From NCBI GenBank assembly GCA_963845755.1, contig CAWJTV010000003.1, positions 1 through 64,000 of the forward strand: DNA of 64,000 bases, written 5' to 3'. The notes beneath the pieces were generated by a model, which was given only the letters and a program-made list of their open reading frames with translations, ran no database searches and was not told the DNA's origin. This document shows, one piece after another, positions 42,645-46,112 of this stretch (the stretch's first letter is position 1; every line of letters starts with the position of its first letter). This DNA is from an uncultured Planctomycetota bacterium (GTDB lineage Bacteria; Planctomycetota; Planctomycetia; Isosphaerales; Isosphaeraceae). The translations under genes and the position numbers were made by a program.

Positions 42645-44285
42645 TTGATCCCGACCATTCCGAACCATCCCGATCAAGCCGCCAGCAACGCCGCTCCCTC
42701 CGCCGAGGTCCCTCCTTCTCGGCTGGGCTGGTTGGTCGTCGTGATGCTGACCGCCACCTTGACGGCCGTGTCCACCTATCAATCGTTGCGGCGTTATGAG
42801 GAGTTGCGCAGCGGCTGGTCGTGGGACCTGGCCTATTACAACCAGTGGTTCTGGGCGCTGACCCAGGGCGACGGCACGCTGTCGGTCCGGCCGGTCTCCG
42901 CCTATGCCCAGGAAGGGCCGTCGATCTGGAAGATGAACTACCTCGCGCCGATCCGGCTGGCAATCGCCCCGATCTACCGGCTCTTCCCCGATCCGCGGAC
43001 CTTGATCGTCCTCCAGAATGTCGTGTTCTGGTGGGTGGTCCCCGCGGCATACGGTCTGGTGCGTTCGGAGTCGCGCTCGCGGGGCGTGGCCTTGTCGGCG
43101 GCACTCCTGGTGCCGTTGACTCCCCTCTTCTGGCCCCTGGTGTGGAACGACTTCCGCGAGTTGCAGCTCGTGGCGCCGTTCATCTTGTGGGGGATTCAAG
43201 GAGTCCGTGGCCGGTCGGTCCGCCTGGCCGCGGTGGGGATCGGCGGGATGCTCGCCTGCCGTCAGGAGTTCGCCGTGATCGTCGCGACGCTCGCATTCCT
43301 GCCCCCGCGGCGGCCGGAATCGCTGGAGACGACCCTCCGCTGGCGGCGGGCGACCGTGTTGATCGGGCTTTGCTGGATGTTGTTCGGCTTCTTCGGCTAT
43401 TTGAGATTCATGGTCGGCCGGGCGCGCCCGGATGCGTTCATCGACCAGTTCCTCGGGACGAAGGCACCGGTCTCGGAGACGCTCCGAACGTCCGCCGAGG
43501 CCCTGATCCTGGGGATGGGCGGCTGGGCCGTGCTGATGTGCCTGGTGCCCCGGGTGGCGATCCTCGCCGTGCCGTGGATCTGGAGCCTGTGCAGCGGTCG
43601 CTGGGCCATACGGTTCCTGTCTACGCCCGAGTGGCACCACGTGCGATATGCCATGCCGATGGCCGTGATGGTCCTGGCCGCCGGCCTGATCGGTTACGCG
43701 CGACTGGCGGCCTGGCTGCTGCCCCGTCCCGCCGGCCGGGTCTGGCTGGCGATGGCCTGGCTCGCCGCCGTCGCGATGGGTGCCGCCGGCCTGCGAGACG
43801 TCTCCAACCGAATGGCGGCCGTGCCTCGGGTGTTCGAGCCTCAGGAAGCCGGGGAGATCTGGGGGTGGATCCGCCAGGTCAGCCCCGACGACGCCGTGCT
43901 GGCCGACTATGAAGTCTCCGCGCCCCTCTCCTCGCGGCCGTGGCTCTACAGCTACATCATGGACACCAACCTGCCGGACGGGTTTCCCCGGCTCCGTCCG
44001 GAATTCCACTGGCTGTTCGTCCGGAGCGACTATCGGTTGCTCAAAGTCTTGCTGGAACAGGGGTTCGACGTCGTTCACCGCGGACCCTACCTGACAATCG
44101 CCCGCCGCGGGACGATCAACCTGGCGGAAAAAAACGATTTTTTCCGATTTGCGCGAACCCGAAGCCGCGATAAGATGTCTAGGAACTGTACGACCGCTCG
44201 ATCGTCGTGTTCTTCGATCCCGCGCAGATGGGTGATGGTCTGTTCGACCGTCGCCATCCTCCGATCGCGATTCACGACAGGTTAA
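42645..44285 (+). CDS. DUF2079-like polytopic membrane protein (GT-C-type glycosyltransferase-like)
   Basis: WDLAYYNQWFW, LIVLQ, WNDFRE, ACRQE; multiple hydrophobic segments. Confidence 0.7.
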   Translation: MIPTIPNHPDQAASNAAPSAEVPPSRLGWLVVVMLTATLTAVSTYQSLRRYEELRSGWSWDLAYYNQWFWALTQGDGTLSVRPVSAYAQEGPSIWKMNYLAPIRLAIAPIYRLFPDPRTLIVLQNVVFWWVVPAAYGLVRSESRSRGVALSAALLVPLTPLFWPLVWNDFRELQLVAPFILWGIQGVRGRSVRLAAVGIGGMLACRQEFAVIVATLAFLPPRRPESLETTLRWRRATVLIGLCWMLFGFFGYLRFMVGRARPDAFIDQFLGTKAPVSETLRTSAEALILGMGGWAVLMCLVPRVAILAVPWIWSLCSGRWAIRFLSTPEWHHVRYAMPMAVMVLAAGLIGYARLAAWLLPRPAGRVWLAMAWLAAVAMGAAGLRDVSNRMAAVPRVFEPQEAGEIWGWIRQVSPDDAVLADYEVSAPLSSRPWLYSYIMDTNLPDGFPRLRPEFHWLFVRSDYRLLKVLLEQGFDVVHRGPYLTIARRGTINLAEKNDFFRFARTRSRDKMSRNCTTARSSCSSIPRRWVMVCSTVAILRSRFTTG

Positions 44286-44629
44286 CCGGGTGTGTTGCCC
44301 GGTCGAATCGAAGTCTCGTAACTCGAACGGACCCATGACTCGGTAACTTGAAAGGGACGATCGTAACGTCCCAATCCCCCGTGATGTGACGGCCCGGGGC
44401 TTTTTCTACCCGCCCCACTGTTGCCTCACTTCCAGATCCCGCCTTTTTTCGGCGGATGCGAGGGTTTCGCCATGATCAACCGCAAGAACCTGACGCTGTC
44501 GGCTCGGACGCTTTCCAACCGGCTGAATCTCGGGACGCGGTCGCTCGCCGCTAATGCGGGCGTCAATCATGGTGCTCTGACCTTGCGCACCCGCACCGCC
44601 TATCATGGCGTCATGCGCGAAGGGATGGT

Positions 44630-45430
44630 GTGGTATGACGTATTTCCGATTGATGATGCGAGATACGGAATTCCGACCATTCCCGGCTCACTGTTCCAGC
44701 CGCAGCAAAGCCTACCGAGTTGCTTAACCAGGCAACCCGGTCAACCCGCGGAAGGCGTTCGCGTCGAGCTCGATCCGAGGCCGGCAGACCTCGCCGATCG
44801 ACTCGAACGCCGTGTGACAGTCGGAGATCCCCGGTTTCCATCGGTGGCCGTTACCGCTCCGGAGCGACGAATGGAGGAGCGCGTCAGCGGCTCCCTCTCG
44901 CGTTCCGGATGGAAATCGCAGGGGAAACCCGGCTTGAAGCACGCCCCCGGGCGAGCTGCCAAGGCTAAGGCTAAGGCCGTGGTCGCGATAGCGGCCGCGA
45001 ACGTGGGAAAGTGAGTACCGACCGACCGCTCCTGTCCTGACGACTCCTGTGTCCGCGGCATCCCCTTGCGACCGGCGAGCGACCCGATTTCGGGACGTGA
45101 ACGCCGGGTGAGGATCCGCGGTCCTGATGCCCGAGGCAAAAGCGGACAAATCGGTTGAGTTCGCGCGGTTGGACAGGCTGATCCACCGCGCACGCGCCGT
45201 CTTACTGGTCGCCGCGCCGGAGACCGTCCACGCGTTCGAACGAGGCTACCCACGCCCGGGATGGGAGATCCCGGGAGGCCTCGTCGCGGGGACGGGACGT
45301 TTCCTCCGGTGCCGAGCGTGAAGACGTCCATGATGGCGATGAGTTTCGGCCCGGTTTCGTCGCGCCGACACCCAGGCGGACCTCCCGAACAGGGCCGGGA
45401 CTGGCAGGACCCCCGAAAATCGGGGAAGGC
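44630..45430 (+). ncRNA. Candidate large structured RNA or 5' leader of the ECF sigma gene
   Basis: Continuous nested stems found by eye (see findings); no recognisable protein; boundaries approximate. Confidence 0.5.
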
Positions 45431-45437
45431 GGTTCAC

Positions 45438-46112
45438 GTGTTGATCACGGAGAGGGATCTGGTTTCGGAGACTCGGGGCTGGGCCGACCTGGCGATCCTG
45501 GTGGGTCGCGCCGAGCGAGGGGACCGCGAGGCGTTCGGCGAGCTGGTCGAGCAGTTCCAGCCGACGGTCTACGCGATCGCGCTGCGGCGGCTGGCCAACG
45601 CCAGCGATGCGCTGGAGTTGACGCAGGAGGTGTTCCTGCACGTGTTGCGCCGGATCGGCCAGCTCCGGGAGCCGGAGCGGTTCGCCGGCTGGCTGCGGCA
45701 GGTCGCCGTGCGCATGGCGATCAACCGGGCGACGCGGCGGGTTGCTCCGCCGAGCGTCGAGTCGGGGATCCTCGAGGGGGCCTCGGAGTACTCCGATGAG
45801 CCGCTCGACCAGTTGATCAGCCGGGAGCGCGCCGAGCGGCTCTGGGAGGCCCTGGGCCGGCTCAAGTCCCTGGACCGCGAGGCCCTGGACGCCTTCTATA
45901 TCCGCGGGCACTCCCTGCTCGAGATCGCCGAGATGCTCAACGTGCCCCTGGGCACGGTCAAGCGGCGGCTGCACACGGCGCGGAAGCGACTGAAGGTCGA
46001 GCTCGAGGCCTTGGTCGCCGACGCCCAGGAGTGGACCGACGGACCGGCCGACGACGACGTTGACGAGTTCGACGAGTCGGAGTCCGAGCTGGTCGGCGCC
46101 GGCGCCTGGTGA
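45438..46112 (+). CDS. ECF sigma-70 factor with acidic tail
   Basis: GDREAFGELV, ELTQEVFL, FAGWLRQVA, EIAEMLNVPLGTVKRRLHTARKRL. Confidence 0.92.
   Translation: MLITERDLVSETRGWADLAILVGRAERGDREAFGELVEQFQPTVYAIALRRLANASDALELTQEVFLHVLRRIGQLREPERFAGWLRQVAVRMAINRATRRVAPPSVESGILEGASEYSDEPLDQLISRERAERLWEALGRLKSLDREALDAFYIRGHSLLEIAEMLNVPLGTVKRRLHTARKRLKVELEALVADAQEWTDGPADDDVDEFDESESELVGAGAW

Follow-up and report, generated by a model that had tools for sequence, protein, structure and literature searches.

Positions 44286 to 45437 of the stretch of DNA analysed here (the window, which comprises positions 1–64000 of contig 3 of the high-GC, 14.27 Mb source genome, G000) lie immediately upstream of a gene for an extracytoplasmic function (ECF) sigma factor. 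We lean towards reading this interval as the 5′ two-thirds of a message under translational gating, made up of a leader, an open reading frame (ORF), a spacer and the sigma cistron, and not as a free-standing RNA gene. Comparison of related loci shows how this arrangement is built and that it is conserved and syntenic; it also shows a frame kept open, constraint on synonymous sites, and hairpins with covarying pairs. On this reading, the sigma factor would be controlled post-transcriptionally, via translation of an unusually long leader ORF, and the locus would offer a specific and testable way into ECF regulation in a phylum for which few genetic data exist. Genomes of the bacterial family concerned are very large and encode numerous ECF sigma factors about whose control little is known. 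The sigma gene at this locus is among the most conserved of them, lacks a recognisable anti-sigma partner, and always follows the same leader, ORF and spacer.

An initial DNA search covered 40 relatives, and a wider one covered 121 genomes from 53 genera of one planctomycete family; one homologue of the ORF is labelled Isosphaeraceae by one database source. DNA matching 44285–44810 is present in 83 of the 121 genomes and in 38 of the 53 genera, as a single match in all but two. Among the 40 relatives, conservation along the interval is uneven. In an alignment of 29 loci, the identical fraction is highest, at 0.87–0.89, across 44470–44560, where it exceeds that of the sigma gene; it drops to 0.17–0.32 from 44800 to 45180, and small islands of conservation lie near 45190, 45310 and 45400. 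Gene order is strictly kept. A sigma orthologue lies 750–1300 nucleotides (nt) downstream of the conserved ATG of the ORF in 28 of 30 loci, the other two ending ~510–570 nt past the ORF start codon, before the sigma gene could appear. With a sigma orthologue also found downstream in 40 of 40 further loci, both the order and the 750–1300 nt spacing hold in 68 of the 68 loci with enough DNA.

The ORF itself (44472..45014, + strand) has 180 codons plus a stop, and is recognised by its open frame, its pattern of indels and its homologues; it is family-specific, has no known domain and is predicted to encode a disordered product. Of 70 loci read from the conserved ATG, 63 have at least 100 open codons in frame 0 and 55 have at least 140; the corresponding counts are 1 and 0 for frame +1, and 15 and 8 for frame +2. 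Gap runs were counted in 26 loci from better assemblies, leaving out four loci with broken frames: 11 of the 12 distinct runs within nt 4–330 of the ORF are multiples of three, versus 16 of 82 in the leader. The open frame and the multiple-of-three indels across relatives are as expected of a protein-coding gene. A protein database contained 278 homologues at E ≤ 0.001, most of them 174–179 amino acids long, and the named ones are called “hypothetical protein”. When 35 of the 120 listed homologues were aligned, those down to 51% identity were alike in an N-terminal block, in the motif PRPADL, and in a basic C-terminal tail that is rich in Ala and Lys and ends in GK. Family-wide, in 63 sequences, the N-terminal residues R4, N6, L9, S10, A11 and L18–R23 are at least 90% conserved. 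The products of distant genera cannot be aligned past ~45 residues, yet they are 106–213 amino acids long. A profile of the first 50 residues matched 37 of 48 family genomes, once per genome, and 0 of 152 genomes from 18 other families of the class. Searches of the product against Pfam and NCBIfam (E ≤ 0.1) and PADLOC gave no match, a PDB-profile search gave 0 matches at E ≤ 1, and a protein atlas gave no usable match; known anti-sigma domains (e.g., zf-HC2 and RsdA-type) were likewise not detected by Pfam or NCBIfam at E ≤ 0.1 or by PDB profile at E ≤ 1.

These results bear on an earlier note on this DNA, made from the sequence alone. Its statement that the interval holds no recognisable protein stands for known families, there being no Pfam or NCBIfam match, and falls in so far as the interval contains a conserved ORF. 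Its central proposal, a single undescribed large multi-domain non-coding RNA (ncRNA), came with the author's own test, protein-level conservation of ORF 44421..45014. Such conservation is what was found from the conserved ATG at 44472 (an open frame, gaps in multiples of three, 278 homologues, and a conserved C-terminus), so the proposal fails by that test; three of the helix sets named in its support (44714–41, 44754–811 and 44835–915) fall within the conserved ORF. The locus thus illustrates how a helix-rich “gap” in high-GC DNA may mislead a reader.

The first codons of the ORF are constrained as RNA. Codons 1–27 (44472..44552, + strand) are the most conserved nucleotides of the whole locus, and identity, codon entropy and the synonymous substitution rate (dS) define them as a synonymously constrained core. 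Codon entropy was computed at amino-acid positions at least 80% conserved and with four- or six-fold degenerate codons. Over codons 1–49 of the ORF, the mean is 0.50 bit for 13 columns, eight of them below 0.4 (64 of the 70 loci), compared with 1.32 bit for 73 columns, none below 0.4, in the sigma gene of the same genomes (57 loci). dS is 0.13 for codons 1–27, 0.47–0.87 for the later ORF, and 0.66–0.88 for the neighbouring genes. Low codon entropy together with low dS indicates that selection acts on the first ~25 codons at the nucleotide level, in their wobble positions, making the locus a clean example of synonymous-site freezing that exposes an RNA element hidden in a coding region. At codons 25–30, a hairpin, CTCGC/GCGGG (44544..44561, + strand), shows covarying pairs over 58 loci (CG:37 UA:8 UG:4; CG:19 GC:10 GU:3; CG:36 UA:5 UG:4). 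Several further candidates were considered and rejected. An ACCGC/GCGGU helix round codons 3–24 shows no compensating changes in the rows that vary; long-range duplexes between core and spacer do no better than shuffles (17 loci); and an antisense ORF (44406..44606, − strand) in codon register with the core, considered as a cause of the frozen wobble positions, was set aside, as the variable positions lie off its wobble pattern.

The predicted 5′ untranslated region (5′UTR) of the ORF is ~289 nt long (44183..44471, + strand; defined from the conservation profile, alignments, and a folding-energy z-score of −1.66). Its first ~100 nt are variable, and 44285–44471 is conserved. All 70 loci share one order of elements: a CCUCAC-like anti-Shine-Dalgarno (anti-SD) segment, a short spacer, CCGCC-loop-GGCGG, the SD sequence GUGAGGG or GCGAGGG, 7–8 nt, and AUG. 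The loop of the CCGCC/GGCGG hairpin varies in length and sequence, and the SD's GAGGG and the ATG show little or no variation. In the window, this expression platform (44424..44464, + strand) comprises the anti-SD CCTCAC at 44424–29, the hairpin arms at 44439–43 and 44451–55, and the SD-containing GCGAGGG at 44458–64. Pairing in the platform and in the intragenic hairpin was counted on the same 58 loci, i.e., the 70 minus 12 near-duplicates. The CCGCC/GGCGG hairpin is 94.8% paired and the anti-SD:SD helix 80.3% paired, which identifies the latter as SD-sequestering; one of its pairs covaries (AU:24 GU:8 GC:6, with 19 other, unpaired). For the anti-SD:SD helix and the two hairpins together, 85.7% of cells are paired, compared with 38–47% when the partners are slid, and 33 cells have changed on both sides, compared with 4–17 for slid partners and 19.3 ± 2.9 for shuffles, none of 500 of which reach 33. 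The RNAalifold consensus for the 58-locus core alignment is weak, at −8.2 kcal/mol.

Upstream of the platform, many loci carry an additional domain with three helical regions. P1 (44285..44303, + strand) is an ACCGGG/CCCGGT hairpin with a 7-nt loop, in which five of seven pairs have both sides changed with pairing kept (e.g., AU:19 GC:9 GU:6; RNAalifold, 35 leaders). P2 (44308..44343, + strand) is, in the same 35-leader alignment, an interrupted helix TCGAnGTC...GACTCGG round a nearly invariant core; because its pairs do not vary, covariation speaks neither for nor against it. P3 (44354..44372, + strand), GGGACG/CGTCCC, was recognised by eye from the alignment, where the stem is kept with varied sequence (GGGACG:CGTCCC, AGGACG:CGTCCT, GGGCG:CGCCC and GGGACC:GGTCCC); no tool-based count is given because MAFFT misregisters its 3′ arm. 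The P1-P2-P3 domain, which also includes a conserved CCCCGUGA, occurs by motif in 32 of the 70 loci and additionally in G000 and in three loci with variant forms, spanning about a dozen genera; more distant genera lack it and keep the platform alone. Checked as a riboswitch-type sensor, the domain has a covarying P1, a P3 supported by eye and an invariant P2, and is present in part of the loci, and the downstream genes (the ORF and sigma) offer no metabolic hint to a ligand. At 44319–44325, within P2, G000 reads GTAACTC; 32 of the 34 other rows read GGGAGCC or GGGAACC, and two variant loci are gapped. G000 is also one C short in the GGACCCC that follows, and the same-genus genome G001 is canonical. 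Judged from these differences, the sensor domain of G000 may be decaying.

A conserved promoter-like block lies at 44149..44181 (+ strand), recognised from the alignment and from its spacing in related loci, with a T-rich tract (44135–44148) upstream of it. It can be read as sigma-70-like, TTGCGC-N16-TAAGAT, or as ECF-like, GCGCGAAC-N18-GTCTA, which we take to resemble ECF promoters. The block is found at this spacing in 41 of the 70 loci, 207–340 nt (median 298) 5′ of the conserved ATG, and would put a transcription start near 44183. A sigma-70 scan did not call it (8/12 matches). The same scan's site within the ORF, at 44577–44606, was rejected, its −10 hexamer not being retained in relatives. 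Similar GCGCGAAC or CGCGAAC-N17-18-(C)GTCTA sites occur elsewhere in G000, on contig 13 (254819, −), contig 20 (449964, +), contig 22 (12742, −) and contig 42 (296766, +), and are possible members of an ECF regulon. A regulon defined from GCGAAC-N17/18-GTCTA, with 6 and 8 genome sites compared with 1–5 at other spacings, was set aside as too weak.

Evidence of transcription comes from metatranscriptome contigs of three studies (at least 85% likeness), which fall on 44286–44824, on the sigma gene, and on parts of the spacer. RNA contigs from relatives fall inside the spacer too and bridge 45334 to 45421. Stretches without RNA contigs (e.g., 44122–44208) were not counted as evidence, and depth was not used to rank parts of the locus. 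In run X13, summed word depth is 3040 over 44470–44556 and 142–213 over the sigma gene; this depth sums organisms and is no measure of expression, so that the peak is a lead only, for an abundant piece of RNA.

Elsewhere in the genome, the interval has a single match, a CRISPR spacer on contig 19 (261908–261942; locus L002, 1501–1535), in an array of 54 repeats. The spacer equals 44284–44310 exactly (27 nt), and 44277–44310 (34 nt) except for one TTA/TCGA difference. Relatives differ at the target, so the source would be G000 itself or a strain very close to it. Within 14 kb of the array are a fusion of reverse transcriptase (RT) and Cas1 (a single ORF with RVT_1 at 6.4e-20 and Cas_Cas1 at 2.3e-07), Cas_csx3, Cas_Cmr3 and RAMPs; RT-Cas1 together with Cmr/RAMP genes identifies a type III CRISPR-Cas system with RT-Cas1. 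If the repeat is oriented by convention so as to end in ATTGAAAC, which also agrees with the position of the cas genes relative to the array, the predicted CRISPR RNA (crRNA) is antisense to the leader, which is consistent with + strand transcription of 44277–44310, without proving it. RT-Cas1 systems acquire spacers from RNA, one of them with a bias to highly transcribed regions, and the systems studied are biased towards antisense (PMC6821258); the predicted antisense crRNA has that same reported orientation. One difference is that the spacer here carries the TTA/TCGA change, and origins in RNA or DNA, and in the cell's own genome or that of a close strain, are indistinguishable. The leader-matching spacer would thus be either self-targeting or an RNA-derived record of the leader.

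The 423-nt spacer between ORF and sigma gene (45015..45437, + strand) is structured and contains conserved islands, as indicated by alignments, compensatory changes, and its folding energy. Taken as a unit, 45015–45445 has z = −2.74, a value matched by 1 of 100 shuffles. The islands (+ strand, from alignments) are the stop context at 45003–45027, block A at 45186–45222, a double hairpin at 45240–45284, and block B at 45314–45338. Neither the RNA core in the first ORF codons nor blocks A and B have a second copy in the G000 genome, and thus no regulon can be built from them. Immediately upstream of the sigma gene, a hairpin CCCC..GGGG (45410..45432, + strand) has its 3′ arm over the sigma SD (GGGGAAGGCGG), 5 nt before the GTG start codon. 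This hairpin is present in 29 of the 29 loci in which the sigma alignment begins at residue 1, in one of them as GCCC/GGGC. In distant genera (e.g., loci L043, L048, L067, L076, L053 and L057), its loop is GAGGAU, with GGA in the loop; in the G000 clade the loop has no GGA.

The helices that the earlier note had proposed in 44700–45437 were counted on 11 aligned relatives: 74.9% of cells are paired compared with 34–48% for slid controls, with 34 two-sided changes compared with 17–24, although a structure drawn from one of the aligned sequences beats slid controls for that reason alone. The best supported are the double hairpin at 45240–45284, a small hairpin at 45083–45094, and the intra-ORF helix at 44714–44741. 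The first of these, which the note had listed, has compensatory changes in five of eight outer pairs, and such changes are also seen at 45083–45094. In the multiway junction that it had drawn (45050–56/45142–48 with ggcatc/gatgcc), pairs are mostly lost in relatives without compensation. As complementary segments, the listed arms are real: 44754–61/44804–11, 44835–42/44908–15 and 45050–56/45142–48 are perfect, 44714–23/44732–41 has one mismatch, and the inner arms were located likewise. That they exceed chance was not confirmed by shuffles, most 200-nt z-scores lying within the background of the window. Only two of 14 overlapping 200-nt + strand windows have z < −2 (44800–44999, −3.14; 45200–45399, −2.97) and the rest range from −1.6 to +0.4; 49 windows of the same 64 kb have a mean z of −0.45 (sd 1.68), with 12% below −2. 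The note's failure to recognise a known RNA class agrees with a check run against the Rfam covariance models, which gave 0 matches at gathering score in the whole window. At E ≤ 10 over 44000–45700, the best sub-threshold match was CRISPR-DR8 (21.3 bits versus 39 needed, E = 0.15), and nothing usable was found there or on loci L098 and L002. Its suggestion of a cis-regulatory leader for the sigma gene survives in part. The ~190 nt of 44285–44471 are a conserved 5′UTR with covarying hairpins and an SD-sequestering helix, and the last 423 nt (45015–45437) are moderately structured, with compensatory changes and a hairpin over the sigma SD; the conserved 5′UTR, however, precedes the ORF and not the sigma gene directly.

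From these observations we infer a transcription start, co-transcription of ORF and sigma gene, an involvement of Rho, and a regulatory logic that would run as follows. A promoter near 44149–44181 would give rise to an mRNA with a ~290-nt leader, an ORF of 150–200 codons, the 423-nt spacer and the ECF sigma cistron. At its 3′ end, the leader would pair CCUCAC, the anti-SD, with the first cistron's SD round the small invariant hairpin. Translation of the ORF would start under the control of the leader and of the RNA structure formed by the first codons, with a ligand, a protein (e.g., one of the 14 CsrA paralogues of G000), or temperature as candidate triggers. Ribosome transit through the sequence-tolerant ORF would then shield the transcript from Rho-type polarity or decay, and the structured spacer and half-buried SD hairpin would set the level of sigma translation. 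Given both gating and shielding by ribosomes, sigma expression would track translation of the ORF. An open frame with near-neutral amino acids is what would be expected if stop codons are selected against as polar on the sigma gene.

A number of findings weigh against this interpretation. Frame 0 is shorter than 100 codons in 7 of the 70 loci. Six broken-frame loci that were traced (G008, G062, G073, G075, G050 and G052) are in assemblies 54–84% complete, and at some of them the neighbouring genes too align only partly; G075, where both neighbours look intact, is an exception. The ORF has a third-position GC content (GC3) of 0.68, versus 0.94 and 0.87 in the neighbouring genes. In a sample of 12 loci of the closer clade, selected for intact ORFs, its dN/dS is 0.52, 0.81, 0.59 and 0.83 for codons 1–27, 28–65, 66–115 and 116–180, respectively, with values of 0.18 for sigma and 0.24 for the upstream DUF2079 gene; by this measure, the amino-acid sequence is evolving almost neutrally and is weakly constrained. 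An AlphaFold2 (AF2) prediction made with an alignment has a predicted local distance difference test score (pLDDT) of 51, a predicted template-modelling score (pTM) of 0.10, and no secondary structure. High dN/dS, low GC3 and the lack of a predicted fold make the ORF an atypical gene. At the RNA level, G000 and its clade have an A.C mismatch in place of the covarying pair of the anti-SD:SD helix, the otherwise invariant GGGAGCC of P2 is missing from G000, and the 5′UTR as a unit (44183–44480) folds unexceptionally, with 11 of 200 shuffles folding equally well. The metatranscriptome contigs reveal neither strand, ends nor operon structure, and RNA libraries can contain DNA. Lastly, the 423 nt from ORF stop to sigma start make direct translational coupling unlikely, and the spacer islands (blocks A and B) could be a separate sigma promoter.

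This last point leads to the best-surviving alternative; the alternatives are not all exclusive of translational gating. It is possible, though on the whole unlikely, that the locus consists of two transcription units, one with the leader and ORF and the other with the sigma gene, which would have its own promoter in the spacer (blocks A and B) and a structured 5′UTR of ~100–250 nt, such that synteny would reflect nothing more than shared regulation. The two islands with a covarying hairpin between them, the long distance from ORF stop to sigma start, and the conserved SD hairpin at the sigma start are all consistent with this model. In contrast, neither block matches a promoter consensus in a promoter scan, neither has a second copy in the genome, RNA contigs from relatives occur within the spacer and bridge 45334–45421, and the strictness with which order and spacing are kept (68 of 68 loci) suggests more than shared regulation.

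A more doubtful proposal is that the ORF product regulates the sigma factor encoded next to it, as a basic, intrinsically disordered protein that evolves fast, either a FlgM-like anti-sigma factor or adaptor, or an RNA-binding autoregulator; the conserved N-terminal ~45 residues would be its working motif, and the leader would merely tune its synthesis. FlgM is a small disordered anti-sigma-28 factor whose conserved part is C-terminal. By structure prediction, the ORF product appears similar in being a small disordered protein encoded beside a sigma gene, and differs in that no sequence relation to FlgM was found. Retention of the open frame and of length, the N-terminal motif conserved family-wide in 63 sequences, and the PRPADL motif and basic Ala/Lys-rich C-terminal end conserved in the closer clade are as such a protein would require, and the ORF is the sole conserved neighbour of a sigma gene that has no conserved downstream partner. 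ECF groups with short C-terminal extensions and no recognisable anti-sigma factor are described (PMC7826278). Interpretation is complicated by the frozen synonymous sites, which place the N-terminal conservation at least partly at the RNA level, and the dN/dS of 0.52–0.83, the absence of Pfam, NCBIfam, PADLOC and PDB-profile matches and of a predicted fold, and the inability to align products of distant genera past ~45 residues all argue against a regulator protein.

CsrA proteins form a family of translational repressors, and G000 shows a striking expansion of them, with 14 CsrA-family matches above the Pfam cut-off (e.g., contig 34, 392715–392870; contig 20, 459019–459174). We consider it quite unlikely, though compatible with translational gating, that the conserved translation-start regions are CsrA-type binding sites and form a trans-acting switch. 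Besides the 14 matches, GGAUGU stands directly 3′ of the hairpin at the ORF start, followed by GAGGG, and the sigma hairpin loop is GAGGAU in distant genera; the ORF-start GGAUGU and the loop GGA presumably resemble the CsrA consensus. On the other side, the loop of the sigma hairpin lacks GGA in G000 and the rest of its clade, and SD regions are often rich in GGA. More speculative still, and improbable in our view, is the idea that the ~120-nt core at 44438–44561 (SD hairpin, first 25 codons, and intragenic hairpin) is a stable, abundant functional RNA element that either binds a regulator, e.g., titrating CsrA paralogues, or is recognised by the cell's own type III/RT-Cas1 system, with the ORF kept open mainly to carry ribosomes; if true, this would connect an ECF sigma operon with a switch at the RNA level as well as with a CRISPR spacer directed at the cell itself. 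Finally, that the whole of 44286–45437 is one large multi-domain structured ncRNA is very improbable, despite its many helices, some with compensatory changes in close relatives, the lack of a GC3 signal and of a known protein family, and the z-score of the spacer, given the selected open frame, indels in multiples of three, a conserved stop position and C-terminus, the collapse of identity over 44800–45180, mostly background z-scores, and the absence of an Rfam family.

Translational gating of the sigma message has parallels in well-studied systems. The E. coli rpoS message has a long structured 5′ leader that masks the ribosome-binding site of a stress sigma factor and is opened by small RNAs and Hfq. 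Both cases would combine a folded leader of a sigma message over a ribosome-binding site with a required opening event; the rpoS leader, however, is untranslated, whereas the SD masked at this locus is that of a 180-codon ORF upstream of the sigma gene, and no sequence or Rfam relation was found. In the E. coli rpoH thermosensor, a structure that includes the early coding region governs initiation. Early codons are similarly constrained as RNA here, but in the upstream ORF and not inside the sigma gene. For tnaC-tnaA, mgtL-mgtA and the corA leader, translation of an upstream ORF decides downstream transcription or translation, and the peptide sequence matters little or locally. Known leader ORFs of this kind have ~10–30 codons, as opposed to 150–200 here, where the ORF ends 423 nt before its target; with respect to Rho-dependent attenuation, the role assigned to Rho at this locus is purely conjectural. 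Rfam, Pfam and NCBIfam contain neither the leader nor the ORF, and a literature search found no paper on either. An SD-masking leader with a leader ORF before a regulator gene is of a known kind, of which a long, family-wide, near-neutral ORF with a frozen RNA core would be a new form.

The sigma gene (45438..46112, + strand) has a GTG start and encodes 224 amino acids, as supported by Pfam, NCBIfam and orthologues. The product matches PF04542 (Sigma70_r2; 1.3e-13), PF08281 (Sigma70_r4_2; 2.6e-12), PF07638 (Sigma70_ECF; 8.8e-07) and TIGR02937 (9.6e-29); sigma-2 and sigma-4 regions without sigma-3 identify it as an ECF sigma factor. Orthologues in different genera are 71–97% identical in amino acids. 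A short acidic C-terminal extension, EWTDG...ELVGAG..W, is encoded at 46020–46112 and ends in W or WS in most orthologues. Downstream regions were fetched for eight relatives. In the window and in the five of these relatives whose downstream ORFs were analysed via Pfam, sigma is followed by genes of varying product and strand; accordingly, there is no conserved downstream anti-sigma gene in these six.

On the other side of the locus, the GC3 coding signal is absent from ~44130 to ~45400 and is ~0.9 in the flanking DUF2079 membrane-protein gene and ECF sigma gene. The frame of the DUF2079 gene continues without a stop to 44285, crossing the promoter block and the start of the leader, and its GC3 signal ceases near 44130; the final ~50 codons of that frame are probably not a conserved part of the protein. 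Among the relatives, G008, G062, G073, G012 and G069 (loci L006, L019, L018, L005 and L012, respectively) are assembled in few contigs at 54–63% completeness. Their tblastn alignments of ordinary genes are broken up and their ORFs contain single-base indels, which looks like pervasive indel error of a sort that would lower completeness scores. In the CRISPR array on contig 19, a second spacer (262604) matches contig 36 over 25 of 25 nt (278682–278706; locus L098, 1983–2007), within a 535-codon ORF with acidic EGEQFYEA-type repeats. In total, 4 of 53 spacers are self-matching, the two weaker ones over 19 of 19 and 22 of 23 nt.

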